Of a DNA stretch of 64,000 nt, positions 6,001 through 9,000 are shown piece after piece (within the stretch, counting starts at the first letter, position 1; the number at the start of each line of letters is the position of its first letter). The stretch comes from Escherichia coli (lineage in GTDB: Bacteria > Pseudomonadota > Gammaproteobacteria > Enterobacterales > Enterobacteriaceae). The position numbers are program-made. The stretch lies in the NCBI RefSeq assembly GCF_030013595.1, contig NZ_CP122768.1. One strand, written 5' to 3'.

Positions 6001-9000
6001 GAATATGCATTATAAAATATCAGTTAACATTAACAGGATTTTGTAATAAGCCACATTTATTCTTTCGGGAATTAAAAAACATAACGAAATTTTGCCTCAT
6101 TCTGCATTTCATTGAAATAGTATGTTTCTCATCGAAAGCAAGTTTGTCAATATAAATTTGTAACAGAAATGACTTTCCGGGGATAAACAAAACTGTTCAT
6201 GGCAATGGCTTTCTCTGTCGCCAACATGGATACATTGTTCCGGATAAAGCACTGATGTCATTGACTGACGCAGACTATCAGGCCATCTGATGCTTTCTTT
6301 TCCTTCACCGGTATTGATGATATGCCTTATGAAGGGGGACTTATTCCTGTAACCCAATCACAGGCACTGTGATTACTGGTTTATGATTGATGCTGATTTG
6401 AGCAGATATGCACAGCAGTTGTGGATTCAGGGGATATTTTCTGCCAGATATTCATACCAGATTGATGACCTCTTTGCTCAGATGCTCTTCGTTCTGAGCC
6501 AGCCAGGATTTTGTGGCCACATACATTGTTCGCCGATGGGGAATCGAGACAGGCGATTGGCTGTGATGCGATTTTGCCGCTAACTGAGGATGAGTCCGCC
6601 CCTCCCGGGGAATTCCTGTAAGTTAAGCCGTACCTGTTGATTAGCACTAAACTGGGTAATGAATTTATCTGCCAGTATGAATGATGCCGGGGACGGTTTT
6701 GAACTCCTGATGTCGGGTAATATGCAGGATTTTAATATTTGTTGTCGTCGGGATAATCATTATCCTGAACATAAACTGATACCTTTATCAGAGTTATTTG
6801 ACGTTAATTATGGACTGAATCTTGAGCTGAATAAACTGGAGAAAGATTCTTCAGGAATTAATTTTGTTTCAAGAACGTCCAAAAATAATGGCGTCTCCGC
6901 CAGGGTTAAATTAAAAGATGGTATTAGTCCATGCCAGCAGCTGTGTTAACTGTAGCAGCAGGAGGTTCTGTTATGGAATCGTTTGTACAGGATTCACCAT
7001 TTTATAGTGGAAGAGATCTTTATTGGTTACGTCCTAAAGTTGAACTGACTCTGGAAGAGAAATTGTACTACTGCTCTTGTATAAGAAGAAACAGACACAA
7101 ATACAGCTACGGGCGTCAGGCAAACCGAACGCTGAAGAATTTACTGGTACCGTCATTAGATTCTGTTCCGGCATGGGTATATGGTGTGACAGGGAAAATA
7201 ATATCTGAATTGTCTGAACGTTGAGACTAAGAGGGCCGGAGGCCAGGTGAATGGCCACCGGGATATTTATATCAGAGTATATTGGCGATTGATTTTGCCA
7301 GCTGGTCTTCCAGATGAGGTTTAGCTTCTTCAAACTTCAGATTAACCTGGTTGGCACTGGATACAACCCGGGTCTGGTATTTATGCTGGTTGCCGGTTTC
7401 TGTGCTTGTCTGAATTTTGGAGCCTGATGTTCCCTGACGCAAAGCTGCAACATTATCCGTTCTGACGCTGGTTCTGGTTCGCTCGGCAATCTGAACATCT
7501 GTAATCATTGTGTAATTTATATCTTCCACCATTGCATCCGCGGCCATGCCAATCAGACCGGTAGCCAGTCCAACACCGAGAGTGGTACCTGCCGACCCGG
7601 TATTGTACGCTGTGATTCCACCTCCAAGAGCAGCTCCGACTGCTGCACCTTCATAACCGCGACTCAGCCATCCCTGAGATTCACGCAGATCCATTTTGTC
7701 TGCTTTGAGAACGTTAGCCTGGATCCAGTAGTAAGCTTTATCCGGGGAAGTCATGATCTGATAACCTCTGGCTTTGACTGCATCGGCAATTTTTCCCTGT
7801 AGTCCACTCATGTCTTTATCCGACGTGTTTTTGATCTGCAGGAAAACGGTGCGTTCGCTCGCAGGTTCAAGCCAGATGGTTGAGGTGTACTGACAATAGC
7901 GGACACTACCATTTGTTCTTTTTTTAAGCAGCCATCTGATGATATTTTTCCCTGAAGGCTGCCGGGGATATATTCCCCAGACGAGAGTGACGACGCTGAC
8001 GATTGTAGAAAATCTCAATGTATTCCCGTATTACTGAGATGGCCTCATCCCGGCTCTTAAAACGATAGTGGCTCAGGCTCTCATTTTTCAGCGTTCCCCA
8101 GAAGCTTTCCATCGGAGCGTTGTCGTAACAGTTACCTTTACGCGACATTGATGTTTTCAGACCAAACTGCTCCTGTATGACCCGGTAATCGTATGCGCAG
8201 TACTGTGAACCTCGATCAGAGTGGTGGATTAGCCCGGCAGGTGGGCGCTGGCTCCTGAGCGCCATAAACAGGGCTTTACCTGTCAGCTCTTTTGTCATGC
8301 GCTCTCCCATGGCGTAGCCGACAATTTCGCACGTATAAACATCTTTGATGCCAGCGAGGTACAACCATCCCTCCTGTGTGGCAACATACGTCAGGTCCGC
8401 CACCCAGACCTGATTTGGTGCTGTAGGAGCGAACGTCTGGTTCAGCAGATTTGGCGCAACTGGCAGATTGTGGTTCGAGTTCGTAGTCGCCCTGAACTTG
8501 CGTTTCTGCTTACAGCGTAGCCTTAGCTCCTTACGAAGACGTGCCAGTCGGTCACGACCAACGATGATGCCATTCTCTGCCAGCTCCGTCTGGAGCCGCC
8601 GGGTTCCATATGTTTCGCGAGTGCGGATATGTGCCACCTTAATCTCCAGTTTTAGCCGCTCATCACTTTGTTTTCTGTCTGAGGGTTCATGCTGTACCCA
8701 GTTGTAATAACCGCTCCTGGATACACCAAATACCTGACACATCGCTTCAATGGGAAATTGTTGTCGCCATTGTTCGATTAACGCGTATTTTTCAGCGACT
8801 CCTGTGCAAAATACGCTGTTGTAGATTCAATTGGTCAACGCAACAGTTATGTGAAAACATGGGGTTGCGGAGGTTTTTTGAATGAGACGAACATTTACAG
8901 CAGAGGAAAAAGCCTCTGTTTTTGAACTATGGAAGAACGGAACAGGCTTCAGTGAAATAGCGAATATCCTGGGTTCAAAACCCGGAACGATCTTCACTAT

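Follow-up and report, generated by a model that had tools for sequence, protein, structure and literature searches.

Two open reading frames of 96 and 97 aa lie on the plus strand between dgkA and traT in a 64,000-nucleotide stretch of Escherichia coli DNA (the window); they overlap by 19 nt, and the second (ORF2) is read in the -1 frame relative to the first (ORF1). The ORF listing of the window gives both with exactly the coordinates and lengths reported by the initial annotation, which took the pair for a single gene of approximately 190 aa, of no recognisable family, interrupted by a frame change near 6930-6950. The locus thus raises the question of what this gene once was, how it came to be broken and whether any part of it could still be at work. 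We hold it to be very probable that 6659-7224 is a pseudogene, namely the 3' 58% of the gene for the specificity subunit (S, or 'B') in a BcgI-like (Type IIB/IIG) restriction-modification (R-M) module of two genes that was once located between dgkA and traT. The coordinates of the features discussed here, including those of the related loci of E. coli strains 99.0741 (L005), 2013C-3033 (L006) and SCU-171 (L007), are collected in Table 1.

Table 1. Features of the dgkA-traT interval and its surroundings in the window, and their counterparts in related E. coli loci
Feature	Sequence	Coordinates	Strand	Length	Description
Phosphoethanolamine transferase gene	window	3890-5521	+	543-aa ORF	low-GC, EptA/MCR-type; Sulfatase and EptA_B_N
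Diacylglycerol kinase gene (dgkA)	window	5614-5973	-		convergent with the transferase gene
Non-coding spacer, dgkA to former RM gene	window	5974-6650	.		homologous to L005 7241-7954 and L007 1360-1900
Deletion junction	window	6651-6654	+		ACTG microhomology; L005 7951-7954 and 10371-10374
ORF1	window	6659-6949	+	96 aa	S-subunit codons ~140-231: inter-TRD linker and first part of TRD2
ORF2	window	6931-7224	+	97 aa	remainder of TRD2, including the YGRQANRTL motif, and C-terminal helix
Frameshift site	window	6932-6933	+		intact CCATTGCCAGC, window CCATGCCAGC
Sister-allele frameshift	window	7122-7124	+		AAA in the window, AA in SJ7 and 08_3449, which keep the T at 6932
Inverted repeat	window	7225-7271			GC-rich, GGGCCGGAGGCC...GGCCACCGGG
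traT	window	7272-8018	-		5'-truncated
IS600 remnant	window	7924-8742
AEP-helicase gene	window	12338-14698	-	785 aa	N-terminal AEP (AEP-TOTE, E 1.7e-98); C-terminal DEAH helicase (ResIII, Helicase_C)
A (RM) gene	L005	8083-9972		629 aa	PADLOC REase_MTase_IIG
S gene	L005	9959-10945		328 aa	directly upstream of traT; start overlapped by the end of the A gene
S gene	L006	9005-9991		328 codons	RefSeq annotates 9476-9991
Duplicated segment	L007	1000-1900 vs 6257-7000
Duplicated segment	L005	7154-7954
Duplicated segment	L006	424-967 and 6851-7000

Translated as one fused frame, the two ORFs retrieve 2071 database homologues at E<=1e-3 (best E 2e-122, 93% identity), a result that does not uphold a reading of the pair as random ORFs. 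The size first proposed for the protein was not borne out, as intact homologues measure 314-329 aa and carry two target-recognition domains (TRDs) in tandem, the window keeping codons 138-328 only; more generally, nearly all of the 120 homologues listed (of the 2071) are 290-329 aa long, and the three closest among them (P0001-P0003, all from E. coli) share 93% identity over proteins of 314-328 aa. By tblastn, the window copy aligns to residues 138-327 only, and the joined frame of ~189 codons corresponds to the C-terminal 58% of a 328-aa protein. Intact homologues consist of two tandem copies of a ~150-aa module characterized by the motifs LFDV.YG..LELN, NFVSRT..NNGV, GGSV and YGRQANRTL.

The family, held at first to be unrecognisable, is that of the Type II (BcgI-like) R-M specificity subunits with an HsdS fold. 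PADLOC assigns the intact S protein P0002 to 'Type II specificity subunit' (Specificity_II, PDLC03594, E 1.9e-88) and finds the same model in the fused remnant at E 1.5e-41, with one TRD, or half of the model, covered. The Pfam family Methylase_S matches intact P0002 at 41.2 bits (cut-off 22) and ORF2 at 14.6 bits (E 0.039), under the 22-bit threshold; ORF1 has zero Pfam matches, and no NCBIfam model, those for HsdS included, matches S. Since a PDB search with a single S sequence finds nothing and a profile search returns 1yf2 (E 0.0067) as its sole match, a fold comparison is needed. The AlphaFold2 model of intact S has a mean pLDDT of 82.5, with low confidence only in the 154-174 linker, and its top PDB matches in Foldseek are all Type I HsdS (1yf2 at 3.6e-13, then 1ydx, 3okg and 5ybb_D), followed by the HsdS structures of PacII (7vru_C) and EcoKI (2y7c_A) and by the Type IIB S subunit of BsaXI (8w0p_C, 2.8e-8). 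The gene is thus an HsdS-like, two-TRD Type II specificity subunit whose ancestor was 328 aa long, and not ~190 aa.

That a single gene is interrupted, as had been suspected, is borne out by alignment with intact relatives, in which a T is found to be missing between 6932 and 6933 of the window. This 1-bp deletion (TT to T) converts CCATTGCC into CCATGCC; the T is kept in loci L003-L007 and lost in the window. Its loss truncates ORF1 after six out-of-frame codons, and the ATG of ORF2 at 6931 is generated by the frameshift itself. The ATG of ORF1 is an internal Met of the intact protein (DWV-M-NLSAS) and no true start. PGAP labels ORF1 and the stretch 6973-7224 as hypothetical proteins (WP_001304211.1 and WP_001303891.1, respectively). 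An uninterrupted frame with a native start and the full domain set is thus absent from the window: codons 1-137 are deleted and the frame is shifted at 6932/6933.

The complete module is preserved in a few relatives. In strain 99.0741, a 629-aa N6_Mtase gene is followed by the 328-aa S gene and, on the opposite strand and convergent with it, by traT; ccdAB and a small ORF flank the module upstream. In strain 2013C-3033, the 629-aa and 328-aa frames are both intact and S again lies directly upstream of traT. For S in this strain, the RefSeq entry is limited to 171 aa at the C-terminus, although the frame is open over all 328 codons from position 9005 of the locus and its beginning overlaps with the RM gene's end; the start site of an intact S gene has here probably been mis-annotated. 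Outside of these chromosomal loci, E. coli IncK2/Z plasmids carry an S gene at 76% identity, with a methylase gene and beside a relaxase. The A protein is recognised over its full length by PADLOC as REase_MTase_IIG ('Type IIG restriction enzyme-methyltransferase', E 3.5e-108). It harbors an N-terminal nuclease motif of the PD-(D/E)XK type (P57-E58...E74-C75-K76) and a gamma-class N6-adenine methyltransferase core with N6_Mtase and HsdM-like matches (2okc, 1.2e-18), in which the AdoMet motif GTGGF is found at 353 and NPPY at 435. No helicase/translocase (HsdR/Res) gene adjoins A or S in 99.0741. PADLOC models of length 637 and 341, sizes that would be those of BcgI A and B, also match, at E 1.1e-71 and 5e-15.

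This organization is that of BcgI and its relatives BaeI, BsaXI and NgoAVIII, in which an RM fusion works with a small two-TRD S subunit, in a 2RM:1S stoichiometry and with an S smaller than that of Type I systems, to cut on both sides of a bipartite site (PMC3874165; PMC3592470; PMC11997821). Like these Type IIB, or multimeric Type IIG, enzymes, the intact E. coli relative combines an RM fusion of ~630 aa with a separate two-TRD S of ~330 aa and is devoid of a translocase gene, whereas in the window nothing is left of this pair but one frameshifted half of S. The intact S model matches the BsaXI S subunit 8w0p_C in fold, but no sequence similarity is detectable to the BsaXI chains, whose lengths of 916 and 476 aa are far greater. 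A closer counterpart is found in a Neisseria gonorrhoeae locus, where a 323-codon S shares 51-56% identity per TRD, in swapped TRD order, and the A-subunit C-terminus is 58% identical; this locus is probably NgoAVIII, the one BcgI-like system reported in N. gonorrhoeae (PMC6789123). By comparison with Type I HsdS (PF01420, Methylase_S), the tandem TRD architecture and the fold are common to intact S, but the latter is shorter (328 aa vs ~390-470 aa), its central linker is short and modelled with low confidence, and in the intact loci it is paired with one RM fusion of 629 aa in place of separate HsdM and HsdR subunits, hsdR being absent. By family resemblance, two A subunits of the intact E. 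coli module would bind one 328-aa S subunit, the two TRDs of which would read a bipartite site, and the complex would either methylate this site or cut the DNA on each side.

Comparison with 99.0741 by blastn delineates the main lesion of the locus, which the initial annotation had not noticed. Window 6651-7400 corresponds to L005 10371-11121 (95% identity, a single gap), window 6389-6654 to L005 7691-7954 and window 6005-6400 to L005 7241-7595; the window is thus without L005 7955-10370, a segment of 2,416 bp. This segment spans the 128 bp that precede the RM gene, the 629-aa RM gene in its entirety and the first 137 codons of S. Because all ~2000 homologues have the first TRD, this difference is a deletion in the lineage of the window and not an insertion elsewhere. 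The tetranucleotide ACTG is present at both ends of the segment (...CACTAAACTG/ATAATCC and ...ATACCGG/ACTGGGTAATG, the slash marking the segment end) and as a single copy at 6651-6654 in the window, and this 4-bp junction points to an illegitimate, microhomology-mediated joining.

An IS2 element, with the target site duplication GATTT, interrupts S in strain SCU-171 at the equivalent of window 6662-6666, the deletion endpoint lying 8-12 bp to its left. Anchoring of the deletion at this IS2 site was considered and rejected, as the window keeps the unduplicated target together with the 8-12 bp to its left; sequence traces of IS2 are found nowhere in the window. Further along the same island, the window encodes a 785-aa protein that has an AEP domain at its N-terminus and a DEAH helicase domain at its C-terminus (Table 1), an architecture that matches the published EHEC IS-excision enhancer, IEE. 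In vitro, this protein joins ends that share 4 bp of homology or more, and it gives rise to deletions beside excising IS3-family elements (PMC9943667). It is conceivable, if rather unlikely, that the 2.4-kb deletion of the R-M module was made by the island's own IEE: an IS3-family element would have inserted in the module, IEE-dependent excision would have left a break, and after resection the ends of this break would have been joined through the 4 bp of ACTG. If so, the island would have lost its own defence system to its IS-cleaning machinery.

A sister allele gives the order of events. Strains SJ7 and 08_3449 carry copies that are 99.1-99.3% identical to that of the window and have the deletion junction in common with it, and PGAP annotates these copies as 'restriction endonuclease subunit S, frameshifted'. 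The SJ7 pseudogene, F7D02_RS21105 (99.3% identity), occupies the same locus, but its frameshift lies near 7122 and not at 6932. Two different frameshifts on one shared deletion imply that the deletion came first and was followed by independent decay in each lineage. The gene was lost in two steps: a microhomology-mediated deletion at ACTG took away the promoter-proximal region, the complete A gene and the part of S that encodes TRD1, after which the orphaned half-gene drifted, with a 1-bp deletion at 6932/6933 here and an independent one near 7122 in the sister allele. The two remnant alleles are 2 substitutions apart, so that the divergence from the intact allele predates inactivation, which is recent. 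For this reason, the dN/dS of 0.22, obtained when the restored remnant is compared with the intact allele, from which it differs by 18 synonymous and 15 non-synonymous changes, is uninformative as a sign of purifying selection, nearly all of the divergence having accumulated before inactivation.

The remnant is widespread. The stretch 5974-7271 is 100% identical in many EHEC/STEC chromosomes (O157:H7, O26, O103 and others), and it has a match in about 575 of 5,426 complete E. coli genomes, the remnant being carried by about 570. Even smaller fragments, spanning 27-81% of the query and in some cases abutting IS66, occur in other genomes. This perfect conservation in hundreds of genomes fits a recent clonal spread of the island, selection being formally possible too. 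Of the 5,426 complete genomes, no more than 6 have a detectable A (RM) gene, even when blastn is used in a sensitive mode, and the remnant is thus without its partner.

Could the two ORFs nonetheless be genuine small genes, each with a peptide of its own (96 aa and 83-97 aa)? Each piece has its own PGAP WP_ accession, RefSeq lists two 'hypothetical proteins' at this place in O157:H7, and neither ORF varies across several hundred genomes. Against this, the pair is co-linear with a single TRD of the 328-aa protein and is split inside that domain, the start codon of ORF2 is a product of the frameshift, the sister allele breaks the frame elsewhere so that neither ORF boundary is conserved, and no sigma-70-like promoter match is found just upstream of 6659. 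Such an interpretation is highly improbable. An error of sequencing or assembly, which would make the half-gene one truly open frame, has in its favour that single-base indels beside short homopolymers are a common type of error, but several serotypes are represented among the hundreds of complete, independently assembled genomes that have the identical sequence, and even a corrected gene would still lack TRD1 and the partner gene; the chance of it is practically negligible.

A more elaborate scheme would have the frame restored by recoding, through a programmed -1 frameshift or phase variation, to yield a 189-aa 'half-S' that dimerises and retargets a methyltransferase encoded elsewhere. Truncated or half-size HsdS can work as dimers in Type I systems, and a -1 shift within 6928-6949 would bring the two ORFs back into one frame. 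However, this interval contains neither an X XXY YYZ slippery heptamer nor a repeat tract, and the lesion is a change of TT to T rather than one in a long homopolymer. Moreover, almost all remnant-bearing genomes are devoid of the cognate RM gene, the native start and the upstream region are missing from the remnant, and the other allele is frameshifted at a different site, which together make recoding extremely improbable. The evidence thus argues for a pseudogene, and most likely the remnant does nothing.

The sparse stretch upstream, 5974-6658, had been set down together with the ORFs as decayed cargo. It is indeed free of any coherent ORF, but it is best taken as the old spacer upstream of the deleted RM gene rather than as a decayed gene. 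It shares 91% identity with the dgkA-proximal copy in SCU-171 (L007 1360-1900) and 79-88% with the RM-proximal copy in L005, L006 and L007, and the many indels in it shift every small ORF, none of which is shared between the window and 99.0741. The two largest spacer ORFs, both on the minus strand, belong to no Pfam family; Rfam yields nothing at threshold over the spacer, a sub-threshold STnc150 match falling over dgkA; and PGAP annotates no feature in it, nor is there an annotated plasmid homologue. A decayed gene or RNA in 5974-6658 is accordingly rejected on Pfam, Rfam, annotation and ORF conservation alike. The two spacer copies belong to a larger duplication: in strains with the intact module, a second, decayed segment made of a ureB fragment, a 5' fragment of dgkA and the spacer lies directly upstream of the RM gene, and the two segment copies are separated by inserted DNA that carries a GmrSD/HNH gene, an EcoRI-family methyltransferase and ccdAB (Table 1). 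The dgkA-traT interval has thus been rearranged several times.

In terms of genomic context, the RefSeq chromosome of O157:H7 strain TR01 carries this stretch in a urease/tellurite-type island, in the order ureDABCEFG, a small hypothetical gene, phosphoethanolamine transferase, dgkA, two 'hypothetical proteins' and traT, beyond which IS600/IS66/IS30 debris precedes the AEP-helicase gene. The view of 6659-7224 as decayed cargo of the island is thus supported. The remnant is an ordinary dead gene of a known kind in the EHEC tellurite/urease island, parts of RefSeq already annotating it as a pseudogene, and its own biological importance is little. Its identification has consequences for annotation, as two long-standing 'hypothetical protein' entries of O157:H7 turn out to be one dead gene fragment for which pseudogene annotation is due. 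It also indicates that the island once carried a plasmid-derived BcgI-like Type IIB R-M module beside traT, which adds to its mosaic of decaying plasmid cargo, and the shared deletion and lineage-specific frameshifts are usable as markers for the phylogeny of the island. The intact alleles, found in a small number of STEC and commensal strains (99.0741 and 2013C-3033), are uncharacterised members of a rare enzyme class and could be cloned as new Type IIB specificities.

The neighbours of the remnant deserve a few remarks. The traT gene is 5'-truncated: its homology to the intact traT of 99.0741 ends at window 7881, and its first ~41 codons, encoding the lipoprotein signal peptide with its LSGC lipobox, are replaced by sequence that runs into an IS600 transposase remnant. 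PGAP labels it as an intact 'complement resistance protein TraT'; the truncated gene is probably non-functional. The GC-rich inverted repeat between the convergent stops of the S remnant and traT (Table 1) looks, from its sequence, like a shared bidirectional terminator; a simple terminator scan does not call it. [quoted passage not shown]
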